A stretch of 64,000 bases of DNA, from NCBI GenBank assembly GCA_041640595.1, contig JBEPZY010000001.1, forward strand, positions 288,001-352,000, in the 5' to 3' direction. Source of the DNA: Gemmatales bacterium. Lineage in GTDB: Bacteria > Planctomycetota > Planctomycetia > Gemmatales > HRBIN36. Each line of letters starts with the position of its first letter. The first letter of the stretch is position 1. Below are positions 8,412 through 53,195 of this stretch, one piece after another. A program made the translations under genes and the position numbers. Below the pieces are notes generated by a model. It saw only the letters and a program-made list of their open reading frames with translations, searched no databases and had not been told where the DNA came from.

Positions 8412-8512
8412 GGCTGTCCAGCTCATGGTTAGGCATAATGCAATCCCGCAACAAACAAACAGCGAACCTGGCACGAAATAACGAAGTTACCTGCCTGGGT
8501 CGAGACAATTTT

Positions 8513-8978
8513 GCCCTGTCGAAAACACGGCTGGCTCTGGGCGAAAACTAGCGGCGAACGGCGTGGGCCAGTAACCACAGAGCCGCTTCATTGCCCAATC
8601 GCCACTTCCGCCGCGCCCTCAATTGCAGGTGACAAGGCATTGCCTGGCTGGGCCCAATCTCGTTGAGCGCCGGGCCGCAACTGGAACCGAGTGAACTGGC
8701 CGGGCTTTTCGGCTGCGAAGACGGGGGCAACACCTGCTGGGCTAATTCCAGGCCCATCCTGGTTACAGCTTAGAGCAAATGCGTCCTTGCGTCCGAAGCA
8801 ATTTTCTCCGCATCCGATTGCATCATGGTTACAGCCAAGAGCAAATGGGTTCCTTCCATGGCCGAGCATCGTAGCTCATCCCGCTTCGTGGTGGTTCCAT
8901 CAGAAGCTGTCGTGGTCGTGTCCCACGACCGAGCATCCTAAATCCTCTCGCCCGGCGCGAAGCTCTTTTCGACAGAGC
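8513..8978 (-). mobile_element. Internally deleted IS (MITE-like), copy A of the DDE (IS5/IS4-like) element also at 33255 and 40697
   Basis: Ends GCCCTGTCGAAAACA / TCTTTTCGACAGAGC; reverse complement matches both ends of 40697-41960; keeps only transposase N- and C-terminal bits (LELAQQVLPP, NEAAL). Confidence 0.85.
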
Positions 8979-9088
8979 AAGAGGGTTCCAGCCCCATGCC
9001 CGACCGGTACTGGTATAACTCCAATGCCGGAATAATGTTAGTCGTGGTGGGGAATATTTGCGGGCAGCGGGGACAGTGTCACTGGTCG

Positions 9089-19127: not shown

Positions 19128-19555
19128 AGTCTGATTCATCCCCAGTTTTTGATTGGGCCGGCTATTTCGCAGCACCTGACGAGAGAATGGTTTGTCGAAT
19201 GTCCTATTTTCCAGGGCCTGAGGCTCGCCCGTTCGCATCATACCAGCGTTCGGCCAAGGCGATCGGGTCTAACCGGGTGCCTGGCAGTCGGCAGCCTTTT
19301 CCAAAAACCGAAGATGCTCAAACAGATCTTGCATCTCCTGCGATCTGTGCGGTGCTTCGAGACAAGGAGACCTTTTCAAAAACCTGAAGAGGCTCTGCAT
19401 CTTCCAAGTGCCCCGAAAAACAGCGTCAGGATTGACGCCACCCCGACCGACACCGTGTCTTCCATGCTCCAAGTCTCCGCCTAAGAACAGACCATCCGAC
19501 GTAACCGTTATCATTCAGACGCCTTACCTCCAGCGGGGCTCCCGTCAAAACCGGG

Positions 19556-20041
19556 GATAAGTCAGAACTGGAGCCTTCAGGTAATCGCGGACGGGGTAGG
19601 GAACGCCGATAATGCGGATTTAGAGTCTGGGATAAGTCAGAACTGGGCCATCAGGCAATCGCGGACGCGGTGGGGAACGCCGATAGTGCGGATTTAGAGT
19701 CTGAGATAAGTCAGAACAGGGGCCTTCAGGTAATCGCGGGCGGGGTAGGGAACGCCGGTAGTGCGGATTTAGAGTCTGAGATAAGTCAGAACTGGGGCCT
19801 TCAGGTAATCGCGGACGCGGTGGGGAACGCCGATAGTGCGGATTTAGAGTCTGGGATAAGTCAGAACTGGGGCCATCAGGCAATCGCGGACGGGGTAGGG
19901 AACGCCGATAGTGCGGATTTGGAGTCTGAGATAAGTCAGAACTGGGGCCTTCAGGTAATCGCGGACGGGGTAGGGAACGCCGATAGTGCGGATTTAGAGT
20001 CTGAGAGAAGTCAGAACTGGGGCCTTCAGGTAATCGCGGAC
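19556..20041. repeat. 75-bp tandem repeat, ~6.5 copies
   Basis: Units GATAAGTCAGAACTGGGG... start at 19556, 19631, 19705, 19780, 19855, 19930, 20005. Confidence 0.95.
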
Positions 20042-33254: not shown

Positions 33255-33926
33255 TAGCCTGGAGGCCCCGGGAGGATACATCGCGTACAGCCAGGACTCG
33301 CAATCGGCATGTCCACGTGCTTGGGCAGGTGCACAGAGTGCGGTGGAATGACGCAAGTGCAAGTCGCAATCTGCTGGCCAAAGCGTTGGCTCAGGTATTT
33401 CCGCAGCCGTTGGTGGCCGATGCGGGCTATGATGCGGAGTGGGTGCACGAGTTTTGTCGGGAGCGATGGCGGGTGAACAGTTGGATACCGCTGGCGGTGC
33501 ATAGTGGGGATGGTCAGGTGCGAGGCCGCTGGCGTTCCCGAATGAGGGAGATGCCGAAGGTGTACCGTCAGCGTTGGCACGTGGAATCGTTCCTAAGTGG
33601 GCTGAACCGAACCACTGGATCGCAATTGACACGCTGTGTCCGATACGGCAAAGTCGGACGACGAAGGGCTGAACCGAACCACTAGATCGCAATTGACGGC
33701 GTGGCGGTAAAGTTAAGCCTGGCAACCAGGCGCTATACTGTCAGCCACAGTCGAGGACGTAGCGAGACAAGACGTTGAACAATGAAGCGGCTCTGCGCCA
33801 CAACCGACACTACGACGACGTCGAGCACCACGAGAAGACGTTGAACAATGAAGCGGCTCTGCGGGTGGTGGCTTACGCCATTCGCTGTTAGTTTGCGCCC
33901 ACACGCGACCATGTTTTCGGCAGAGC
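33255..33926 (+). mobile_element. IS remnant, copy C (3' part) of the DDE element
   Basis: LVADAGYD, YRQRWHVESF; right end TGTTTTCGGCAGAGC at 33912-33926; left boundary approximate. Confidence 0.8.
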
Positions 33927-34222
33927 AAAATAGGTTCTAGCAAATGGAAATGCTTGCTCACTATCCAGAGATTTGGTCAACCGGAAAGACACCCCTACTG
34001 GCCTGGCCGACCAATTCTCTCCGGCGAATCCAAGAACAGGTTTAGTGCGGTACTTTTATGTCGGCGGCATGCTGAAAAATTTTGGCACCTTTTGCCAGCA
34101 GCCTTCGGTTAATTAGGTAGAGGCGGACGTGAGCCGGCCAGCGTTCGCAACGGTGCAAGCGAATCAACAACCCAACCGCCAAACCAATTCACAACCCAAC
34201 CACCAACAGAGGAGGACGAACC

Positions 34223-39325: not shown

Positions 39326-39650
39326 CCACGGTGGGCTGACGCCCACCGCTCCTGGTTGTGTGTTCGCCAGTTGCCGAACAGCCCTTGATTTTCACCGCGC
39401 CGGGACGGTTTCACACACCACGGTGGGCTGACGCCCGCCGCTCCTGGTTGTGTGTTCGCCAGTCGCCGAACGGCCCTTGATTTTCACCGCGCCGGGACGG
39501 TTTCACACACCACGGTGGGTTGACGCCCGCCGCTCCTGGTTGTGTGTTCGCCAGTCGCCGAACGGCCCTTGATTTTCACCGCGCCGGGACGGTTTCACAC
39601 ACCACGGTGGGCTGACGCCCACCGCTCCTGGTTGTGTGTTCGCCAGTCGC
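39326..39650. repeat. 92-bp tandem repeat x3.5 with REP-like hairpin
   Basis: Units at 39326, 39418, 39510, 39602; GGTGGGC-TGAC-GCCCRCC palindrome. Confidence 0.92.
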
Positions 39651-40692: not shown

Positions 40693-40696
40693 GTTT

Positions 40697-41960
40697 GCTC
40701 TGTCGAAAACATCTTGGCGCGTGGGGCAGGAAGAGTTGGGATGCTCGGTCGTCGGACACGACCACGACAGCTCCCGATGGAACCGCCACGAAGTGGGATT
40801 AGCTACGATGCTCGGTCATAGATGGACCAATCATTGTCGGTCTTTGTTGCAACGGGTCCTCCTGCCCCTTTCGGGGGCACCCAGTCATGGAAGGACCAAT
40901 CATTGTCGGTCTTTGCTGTAACGTCCACACTCATTAGCTAAAATGCTCACCATGGAAGGAACCCATTTGCTCTTGGCTGTAACCAGGATACAACCGGATG
41001 CGGAGAAAATTGCGTCGGACGCAATGACGCATTTGCTCTAAGCTGTAACCAGGATCTAGCTTGATAGCTTCATACGGATCCTTGACTTCCGGCGACGCAT
41101 TTGCTCTAGGCTGTAACTAGGATACACCGCGTCCCTGGCGTGTGATTGTCGAAATGACAAGACGCATTTGCTCTAAGCTGTAATTAGGATGGCCCTGGAA
41201 TTAGCCCAGCAGGTGTTGCCCCCGTATTCGCACCCCAAAAGCCCACACCAATTCACCCAGCCGCAGTTGCTGGCCTGCTTGATTGTGAAAGCCTACCTGC
41301 GACAGAGCTATCGGGGCATCGTCGAACTGTTGGCCCTGTCGGATGGTCTGCGGCGGGTGCGTCCGCAGCCGTTGGTGGCCGACGCGGGCTATGGTGCGGA
41401 ATGCGTGCACGAGTTTTGTCGAGAGCGGTGGCGGGTGAACAGTTGGATACCGTGGCAGCGTCTGGACGGAAAGGGTAAGTGCAATCACCGCCTGCGGCTT
41501 CGGCCAACCAGGCACCCCGCTGGCAGTGTCTGGTCGGAATGGCCAAGTGCAATCACACCGTTGGAGGGCGTGGTCAATGACCCATGTTCCGAGCTGGCAG
41601 CGTCTGACCGAAAAGGGCAAGTGCGAGGCCGCTGGCGTTCCCAGATGGGAGATGCCCAAGGTGTACCGTCAGCGTTGGCACGTGGAATCGTTCCTAAGTG
41701 AGCTGAAGCGAACCACCGGCTCGCAATTGACGGCGCGGCGGTAATGTTAAGCTTGGCAACCAGGCGCTACACTGTCAGCCACAGTTGGGGGCGCGGCGGG
41801 GAAAAAACTGTAGGAGGATGGTCATGTGCAGCGCCGGTGCTATACTGTCAGCCACAGCTGAGGAGGTGGCGGGAGTGGACGTTGAACAATGAAGTGGCAT
41901 TGCGGGTGGCGGCCTACGCCGTTAGTTTGCGCCCACACGCAACTATGTTTTCGACAGAGC
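40697..41960 (+). mobile_element. Decayed IS, copy B, with both terminal inverted repeats
   Basis: Perfect 15-bp IR GCTCTGTCGAAAACA / TGTTTTCGACAGAGC; YSHPKSPHQFTQPQLLACL, ADAGY, QRWHVES; central deletion and several inserts. Confidence 0.88.
40815..41190. CRISPR. CRISPR-like repeat-spacer array at the transposase start of IS copy B
   Basis: 30-bp GACGCATTTGCTCTAAGCTGTAACCAGGAT-type repeats at 40960, 41026, 41094, 41161 (spacers 36, 38, 37 bp) plus a 39-bp pair at 40815/40884. Confidence 0.65.
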
Positions 41961-42030
41961 AAAGCTTGTTCTCTCAAGGAGAGGCGCATATAAAAGGGCC
42001 AAAAGGTAACAACAGAAGAAAGGTGTTCCT

Positions 42031-52587: not shown

Positions 52588-53195
52588 AATGTGGATGCCT
52601 TCCATCGCGTAGTGCTTGCCCTCTGCGGAGCCCAGGCCGCCAAGACTCTCAGCCGGGACGATGTAGATGCTTCCCATCGCGTAGTACTTGCCGGCCGTCA
52701 GGCGCAAGTCAGCAAGACTCCCTGTCGAGAGGCAAATGCAGATGCATCCGGTCGGCTAATGATAAGCCCTCGCCAGGGGCAGGCCAGCAAGGCTCCCAGT
52801 CGGGGGCGGTGTAGATGTATCCGGTCGCCTAGTGCTTGTCTCCTGCCAAGCCAGCAAGACTCTCAGTCGAGAGGCAATGGAGATATATCCGGTTGCCTAA
52901 TGATAAGCCCTCGCCAGGGGCAGGCCAGCAAGGCTCCCAGTCGGGGGCGGTGTAGATGTATCCGGTCGCCTAGTGCTTGTCTCCTGCCAAGCCAGCAAGA
53001 CTCTCAGTCGAGAGGCAATGGAGATATATCCGGTTGCCTAATGATAAGCCCTCGCCAGGGGCAGGCCAGCAAGGCTCCCAGTCGGGGGCGGTATAGATGT
53101 ATCCGGTCGCCTGGTGCTTGTATCCTGCCAAGCCAAGTCAGGAAGACTGCCAGTCGAGAGGCAATGTAGATGCATCCGCTCGGCTAATGCTTGCT
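52588..53195. repeat. 141-bp tandem repeat x3 built of ~70-bp subunits, with degenerate subunits reaching the tRNA 5' end
   Basis: TAATGATAAGCCCTCGCC... at 52757, 52898, 53039; related CAAGACTC..GGCAATG.AGATG subunits upstream. Confidence 0.88.

Follow-up and report, generated by a model that had tools for sequence, protein, structure and literature searches.

The stretch of DNA analyzed here, referred to in the following as the window, comprises 64,000 nucleotides from a Gemmatales bacterium (assembly GCA_041640595.1, contig JBEPZY010000001.1, positions 288,001 to 352,000 of the forward strand). At 40694..41963 on its plus strand lies a 1270-bp insertion sequence (IS), here called copy B, whose 5' end carries a CRISPR-like repeat-spacer array. 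The element is bounded by 18-nt terminal inverted repeats (40694–40711 and 41946–41963), with the inverted ends GCTCTGTCGAAAACA at 40697 and 41960. A transposase frame remains at 41189..41701 (plus strand). Comparison with relatives showed that its N-terminal 57 amino acids are good, with 45–67% identity to PF01609 proteins of 301–320 aa, after which the gene is deleted and interrupted, so that the open reading frame (ORF) lacks the middle of its homologues of ≈315 aa. The element, with inverted ends bounding a DDE transposase gene, is of the DDE_Tnp_1 (IS4/IS5-like) type, and because this gene is internally deleted and interrupted, it is a non-autonomous derivative. No target-site duplications were recognized by eye, and a search of the genomes of 30 other related species did not turn up the element. 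A second derivative of 466 bp, copy A, lies on the minus strand at 8510..8981, with its inverted ends at 8513 and 8978.

Repeat finding in the window yielded four copies of a repeat of ≈30 nt at 40960–41190, starting at 40961, 41027, 41095 and 41162 and thus spaced by 66, 68 and 67 nt, as well as a 40-nt repeat that is present twice, at 40815 and 40884 (69 nt apart). A preliminary description of the window, made from the letters and a list of their ORFs, had placed a repeat array at 40815..41190, and this is where it was found. Its occurrence greatly exceeds chance expectation: a 26-nt core pattern of the repeat matched the window six times, compared to 0.00 matches expected from 100 shuffles, with four of the matches in copy B and two in copy A (8756–8847, minus strand). 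When the whole 4.45-Mb genome was scanned with up to six mismatches allowed, seven matches were obtained, namely the six in the window and a single copy at C3:266254 on another contig.

The array was then delimited to the base (all positions on the plus strand). The first repeat, R1 (40960..40989), is the original 30-nt target and corresponds to codons 4–13 of the transposase (T H L L L A V T R M); it is present as a single copy in the C3:266254 copy and at the metagenome locus L033. It is followed by a 36-nt spacer, S1 (40990..41025), common to copy A and to two further loci, L034 and L025, and by R2 (41026..41055), a 30-nt duplicate of the target that differs from R1 at four positions and is the same in copies A and B. 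The 38-nt spacer S2 (41056..41093) is found in copy B and L025, and is absent from copy A, L034 and L033. R3 (41094..41123) is an exact 30-nt duplicate of the R2 type, whose flanks differ on both sides, thereby fixing its boundaries (repeat length 30, offsets 68 and 67). The 37-nt spacer S3 (41124..41160), presumably the youngest, precedes the final 30-nt repeat, R4 (41161..41190); a C>T change is common to R3 and R4 but missing from R2, and positions 41189–41190 at the end of R4 supply the A and T of the ATG that opens what remains of the transposase ORF. The inserts thus measure 36, 38 and 37 nt, and the two later spacers lie exactly where the preliminary description had put them. The target duplicated with S2 and with S3 measures exactly 30 nt; for S1 the target is 26–30 nt and the spacer 36–40 nt.

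Neighboring repeats differ at 2 positions per 30 nt, a decay that looks neutral, and R2–R4 carry TAA or TAG where TTG stands in R1, as had been noticed before. The five inserts at the locus (S1–S3 and the two upstream inserts described below) are mutually unrelated, every pairwise score falling inside the shuffle range, and Tandem Repeats Finder made no call at 40815–41190. These observations identify a repeat-spacer structure rather than a tandem duplication. At positions 41037–41041 of R2, aligned with L025 (1350–1354) and L034 (823–827), the TTG of R1 reads CAA in L025 and L034 and TAA in the window, and the local 5-mer CCAAG of R2 is the reverse complement of CTTGG in R1. The three adjacent changes in R2 could have arisen by a small inversion or a template switch, rather than by three point changes.

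The repeat itself is coding sequence. The ORF at 41189 encodes the N-terminus of a DDE_Tnp_1 transposase, for which 17 database relatives of 301–320 aa were collected. Translation straight across the inserts gives MEGTHLLLAVTR..., with stops, but removal of the inserts restores a transposase start, as the preliminary description had proposed. The restored N-terminus aligned without gaps to 16 of the 17 full-length transposases, with its residue 7 opposite residue 5 in each of them; the alignment to the remaining one starts with residue 8 opposite residue 1. Intact homologues might have been expected to contain the extra segments already, had these been an original part of the gene; instead, all 17 have the repeated segment once and no insert. 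A scan of metagenome contigs with the 57-aa N-terminus returned 14 loci, and the uninterrupted copy that the preliminary description had suggested looking for exists at L033, where the DNA translates as predicted into MEGTHLLLAVTRMALELAQQ.... The unoccupied site is thus ordinary single-copy DNA.

Upstream of R1 lies a further block (40798..40962, plus strand) produced by two nested events, which we refer to as U1 and U2. U1 consists of a 28–30-nt target (40798–40827 and 40933–40962) around a 36-nt spacer, which is intact at 40897–40932; its target, T1, abuts R1 within 0–4 nt. U2 consists of a 40-nt duplication (40815–40854 and 40884–40923) around a 29-nt insert (40855–40883), the duplicated segment spanning the last 13 nt of the left U1 repeat and 27 nt of the U1 spacer, that is, the repeat/spacer junction. 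Since L033 and L034 carry U1 without U2, the boundaries of both units are fixed; copy A and L025 have neither. The preliminary description had reported 134 bp of upstream sequence, made of two units and absent from copy A. The absence was borne out, while the length had to be corrected to 135 bp (66 + 69) and the two units proved to be nested events of different size classes.

The copies of the element form a graded series. By alignment, L033 carries U1 and none of the other four units; L034 carries U1 and S1; copy A carries S1 alone, with R2 at 8756–8785, S1 at 8786–8821 and R1 at 8822–8851; L025 carries S1, S2 and S3 without U1 or U2; and copy B carries all five. Copies differ by whole units with exact 30-nt boundaries. 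The spacer of copy A is 94% identical to 40990–41025 over 35 nt, an alignment score reached by none of 500 shuffles, so that the two repeats and one homologous spacer previously ascribed to this copy are indeed there. Natural intermediates with zero, one and three spacers in the R1 array thus agree with the stepwise acquisition at a non-CRISPR site that had been proposed. According to the run labels, the intermediates come from hot-spring samples. Another locus, L024, matches copy B with 100% identity along 3171 nt, possibly because it is the same assembly, and was not counted as independent.

L025 has the internal deletion of copy B and lies at another site, its right flank being 97.6% identical to C8:122444–123442. 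The shared deletion and three shared spacers at a different site show that the non-autonomous element was copied after gaining S1–S3. The S2–S3 part was recovered in contigs of all four runs from four studies, with 0, 5, 1 and 1 differences, which excludes an assembly artefact. In one of these datasets, X11, one contig joins 40980 to 41188, representing an uninterrupted variant, and loose contig ends at 40950 point to copies without the upstream block. X11 is an RNA library whose contigs cover 41026–41215 at a depth similar to the flanks, although contigs cannot show transcription or processing. With the joints included, all four combinations of presence and absence of U1 and S1 occur, the both-absent combination depending entirely on contig joints and loose ends; this shows that units were also lost, or that copies recombined. 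Besides copying of the element after the first event, the preliminary description had allowed that copy A lost units, and the U1/S1 combinations indicate that some losses or recombination took place as well.

S1 is the oldest spacer of the R1 array, since it is found alone in two copies. The C>T change shared by R3 and R4, and lacking in R2, in both copy B and L025 indicates that S3 was added last, at the repeat nearest to the transposase body. The order was thus presumably S1, S2, S3. This hints at polar growth toward the transposase body, with two informative steps and a likelihood of about one in six that the order arose by chance.

The genome has two resident CRISPR systems. In array 1 (contigs C8 and C10), a 30-nt repeat occurs 344 times, and there are 342 spacers of 35–40 nt, the most common length being 36 nt (165 spacers), followed by 37 nt (109 spacers). 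It adjoins genes for Cas1b, Cas2, Cas4, Cas3, Cas5b and Cas7 (type I-B) and a type III-B Cmr module; Cas1b scored 425 bits (cut-off 304) and Cas4 79 bits (cut-off 65). Two Cas1 and two Cas2 matches above the cut-offs were found in the genome, which therefore has an intact adaptation module; the cas1, cas2 and cas4 of the type I-B system are intact. Leader-side spacers of array 1 are directed against contig C15 of the same assembly, with 31 matching spacers, many at 100%, and the C15 protospacers have 5'-CC at positions −3/−2 in 29 of 32 cases. The type I-B system is active. Array 2 (C1:359749–377935) starts 8 kb past the window end and has 247 copies of a 37-nt repeat, with spacers of 33–40 nt (mode 37); it adjoins a reverse transcriptase (RT), Cas1 and Cas2.

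Several further observations concern these systems. The RT of array 2, a 550-aa protein of the group II intron type encoded directly upstream of its Cas1 (C1:356900–359470; L022 11905–14618; 5–8 kb past the window), forms with this Cas1 an RT-associated adaptation module made of separate genes. Contig C15 (L023), 9585 bp long with 50% G+C and the main target of the type I-B array, is a presumed invader that was co-assembled with its host; none of its nine ORFs of at least 100 aa matched PHROGs. Four units with a period of 66–67 nt separate the type I-B array from cas2 and thus lie within the leader region or next to it (C8:21327–21678; L021 ≈330–680). A small array on a 4.7-kb contig (C20:1210–1581), with repeats of 30–36 nt, the first copy starting GTTTCAATACCACACTGG..., and a period of 67–69 nt, is a variant of the type I-B repeat and may derive from another strain or element.

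The array in copy B lacks the hallmarks of a canonical array that produces CRISPR RNA. Neither a leader, a canonical repeat nor adjacent cas genes are present at the locus, the nearest cas genes being ≈27 kb away. The 30-nt repeat matched the two resident repeats at no more than 11 and 12 bases in the best ungapped alignments, values reached by 792 and 731 of 1000 shuffles, respectively, which disposes of the suspicion, voiced earlier, that it might be a captured canonical repeat. It had no match in Rfam at E ≤ 1, and its pattern gave no matches in the species-representative genome collection and no canonical array in the genome. The predicted folds of its two strands (−2.2 and −2.5 kcal/mol) were equaled or surpassed by 169 and 146 of 200 shuffles.

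The dimensions of the units recur throughout the genome. Among direct-repeat pairs outside arrays, offsets of 65–68 nt were represented by 40, 116, 80 and 36 segments and offsets of 72–75 nt by 95, 96, 93 and 92, the count at 72 including protein repeats. Most other offsets had 0–25 segments, apart from further peaks at 88–89 (38 and 32), 92–93 (52 and 90) and 126 (123). The pile-ups at 65–68 and 72–76 nt coincide with the periods of the two resident arrays, and the duplicated length ends at ≈30–34 nt in the first peak and at ≈37–41 nt in the second. From 170 candidates, 35 near long tandem repeats were removed, leaving 135 events, 77 in the 30-nt class and 58 in the 37-nt class. Periods of 65, 66, 67 and 68 nt accounted for 12, 26, 26 and 9 of the ectopic events, compared to 36, 165, 109 and 26 canonical units. 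Furthermore, the ectopic spacer at C2:174418 has the same protospacer, in the same register, as the canonical spacer at C8:12371–12406, and another, present at C2:407730 and C3:561456, matches C15. Among 60 targets, G occupies the first position in 30 and C the last position in 30, compared to a background of 29%, and the canonical repeat likewise has the form G...C. In-register identity to the canonical repeats was slightly above random, at 10.3 versus 9.5 of 30 positions and 13.6 versus 11.9 of 37.

Flanks present in multiple copies were found for 73 of the 135 events, compared to 78 of 600 random sites. We do not read this enrichment as evidence of targeting, as it can be explained by selection against insertion in genes, given that most of the genome is coding, together with copying along with host elements. 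Two other runs of repeats in the window fall within these size ranges: at 19552–19968 is a long run with a period of 74–75 nt and matched segments of up to 162 nt, which may have arisen by amplification of an ectopic unit or may encode a protein repeat, and at 52594–53010 an offset of 72 nt (52594–52620) is followed by alternating offsets of 67 and 74 nt (52783–53010), which may represent interleaved units of both size classes.

During canonical adaptation, the spacer integrase attacks both ends of the 30-bp leader-proximal repeat and ligates a 35–38-bp spacer, and gap repair duplicates the repeat. Given the anatomy of the locus, its empty site, the intermediates, the agreement with the resident dimensions and the genome-wide signature, all directly visible in the DNA, we consider it highly probable that the array is the scar of repeated off-target integration by the type I-B adaptation complex of this genome, carried on a mobile, non-autonomous IS. 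Both the duplications (30 nt) and the inserts (38 and 37 nt) have the sizes seen in the resident system (30 nt and 35–40 nt). We infer that the enzyme responsible was Cas1b–Cas2 together with Cas4. In this scenario, the integrase would have struck the 5' end of the IS transposase gene, inserting a 36-nt spacer and duplicating codons 4–13 (30 nt). The duplicate would have been struck twice more, always at the repeat nearest to the transposase body, yielding R1-S1-R2-S2-R3-S3-R4. A second target of 28–30 nt abutting R1 would have taken up the 36-nt spacer of U1, and a unit of the longer size class, U2, would later have entered the repeat/spacer junction of U1. Between these events, the IS derivative would have been copied to new sites, so that different copies keep different stages, and some copies would have lost units or recombined. 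The resulting array is most likely non-functional.

A number of findings weigh against this interpretation. No protospacer was found for the five inserts of the locus in the genome, a phage collection or two scans of viral contigs, so the search for sources proposed in the preliminary description came back empty: when the 135 ectopic spacers were compared to the genome by BLAST, the only match for this locus was to copy A; a blastn comparison of 40855–41160 with 50,697 phage records produced nothing beyond a chance hit (E = 0.3); and exact degenerate scans of viral contigs gave no matches for S2 and none for S3. U2, with its 40-nt duplication, 29-nt insert and period of 69 nt, is a poor fit to both resident systems, the best partition being 37 + 32 nt when the shortest canonical spacer of the 37-nt system has 33 nt, and a unit in the middle of copy B also has a short insert (68-nt unit, 37 + 31). 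Between R1 and R2 there are 4 differences in 30 positions, including a cluster of three, which implies that the first event was old or imprecise. The duplicated target is no closer to the canonical repeat than chance, the in-register likeness of the 30-nt class as a whole is only slightly above random, and the C15 protospacer of the ectopic spacer at C2:407730 lacks the CC motif.

That the units depend on Cas1–Cas2 is something we infer, and U2 and the 68-nt middle unit fall outside the canonical spacer lengths. A different ruler-like insertion process, by another integrase or by a repair or copying error specific to this lineage, could thus be imagined, with the match to the CRISPR periods a coincidence. 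We consider this improbable, since the periods and the duplicated lengths of two separate peaks both coincide with those of the two resident arrays, the distribution of ectopic periods tracks the canonical one, and two of the ectopic spacers have protospacers in common with the type I-B array or with the contig that it targets. An origin by tandem duplication or minisatellite slippage of a 66–68-nt unit, followed by divergence, would account for the regular period, but hardly for unrelated inserts between repeats that are 93% alike, for the silence of Tandem Repeats Finder or for copies that differ by whole units with exact 30-nt boundaries. Homology of the units over their whole length was not observed, the spacer pairs staying within shuffle range, and we give this origin next to no credence.

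It is just as hard to believe that the IS captured a canonical array or landed in one. The architecture is array-like and a large array does lie 8 kb past the window end, but the repeat is transposase coding sequence, a segment that L033 and all 17 homologues have once, it resembles neither of the resident repeats, and the array sits inside the inverted repeats of the IS at several unrelated insertion sites. A more elaborate possibility is that the array functions as a CRISPR-like or guide-RNA array borne by the IS and driven by a promoter of the element, serving in defence, transposase regulation or target choice. It lies behind the 5' end of the element in the sense orientation of the transposase, was kept in samples of four studies, is present in contigs of an RNA library and appears to have grown in a polar manner. 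Such a role is very unlikely, however, as the repeat has no stable fold relative to shuffles, has no match in Rfam, differs from the repeats that resident Cas6-type processing would recognize and decays at neutral-looking rates; similar units are found at hundreds of unrelated sites, and the RNA library covers the array no more deeply than its flanks, in contigs that cannot show transcription.

Within the reading as off-target integration, the choice of target deserves attention. The copy at C3:265987 has the same T1 target with the same boundaries and a different 39-nt insert, unrelated to that of U1 (902 of 2000 shuffles scored as high), and the different insert marks it as an independent hit. 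A site in the 3' part of the element (core GACGTTGAACAATGAAGCGGCTCTGCG) is uninterrupted in six copies and occupied in three independent lineages, whose inserts differ while the right boundary is shared. Because the same boundaries were hit independently in different copies, preferred targets may be real, and because growth appears to be polar, toward the transposase body, an ordinary flank might act as a surrogate leader. It is a doubtful but conceivable extension that the 5' end of the IS and one 3' site are preferred targets of the integrase, with the flank as surrogate leader, and that proto-arrays spread with the mobile element. If so, this would be a natural route for the birth and spread of CRISPR arrays with new repeats, within and between genomes, and spacer integration would knock out transposases as a side effect.

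Off-target integration of this kind has been described as neo-CRISPR formation by over-expressed Cas1–Cas2 of the E. coli type I-E system, with circumstantial evidence from two other species, according to the account of Nivala, Shipman and Church 2018 (Nat Microbiol) in bioRxiv 10.1101/148544. The two cases are alike in that an insert of spacer length is flanked by a non-CRISPR duplication of the length of the resident repeat, repeated hits at one site start a new array, and a resident adaptation module is, presumably here too, required. They differ in that the present case is natural, involves a type I-B module and a second size class that matches an RT–Cas1 module, and offers a series of zero, one and three spacers on copies of a mobile element, as well as insertions nested in an earlier spacer. 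We conclude that the structure is most probably a natural neo-CRISPR of known kind, unusually well resolved, and that the graded series at one site is the new part. Compared with canonical type I-B adaptation, it shares the 30-nt duplication, the 36–38-nt spacers and the addition at one end that the presumed order of S1, S2 and S3 implies, but has no leader, canonical repeat, adjacent cas genes or recognizable processing signal. Shmakov et al., in their 2020 work on CRISPR arrays away from cas genes, reportedly attributed orphan arrays partly to off-target integration. Such arrays are said to be small, far from cas genes and not bound to match the repeats of the main array, as is the case here; unlike them, the present repeat can be traced to the base, to transposase codons 4–13, and its empty site was found. 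In a search of the openly accessible literature, we found no natural genome-wide ectopic integration in a planctomycete, no array grown from a transposase start and no comparable multi-step series in nature.

Most of what is known about off-target spacer integration comes from E. coli over-expressing Cas1–Cas2, and its natural frequency, its targets and its ability to seed arrays are at issue. The present locus provides a base-resolved natural series at a single site (empty, one spacer, three spacers and a nested hit), and indicates that after a first hit a non-CRISPR sequence is struck again and can build up into an array. The uninterrupted L033 and the occupied copies are ready substrates for working out the target rules of the type I-B integrase. 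In genome annotation, scars of this type account for pseudogenes that are frameshifted or "repeat-containing" and for small orphan "CRISPR" calls.

Other parts of the element and its relatives carry similar units. Copy B contains eight units in all, four per size class, and ≈551 of its 1270 bp are inserted or duplicated. A second ectopic array (41452..41630, plus strand) has a 37-nt coding target in three copies with periods of 68 and 74 nt, the size class of the system with the 37-nt repeat; L025 has the single uninterrupted target, and contig joints skip 73 and 168 nt. A further single unit with a period of 73 nt (41763..41860, plus strand) is also present in L025. A third fragment of the IS family in the window (33400..33929, plus strand) carries two units of the 30-nt class, at 33599 (period 67) and 33766 (period 66), the second of which occupies the 3' hot spot that was hit independently in other copies. 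The copy of the same family at C3:265987–267200 (L005) carries no fewer than eight additional repeat-spacer units, which occupy different coding targets, have periods of 66–68 and 73–75 nt and include a three-spacer array at the 3' hot spot. Finally, just upstream of IS debris, at 39326–39650 of the window, is a 92-bp tandem repeat of 3.5 copies with 97% matches, and the genome-wide peak at offsets of 92–93 nt suggests a dispersed family of 92–93-nt repeats.

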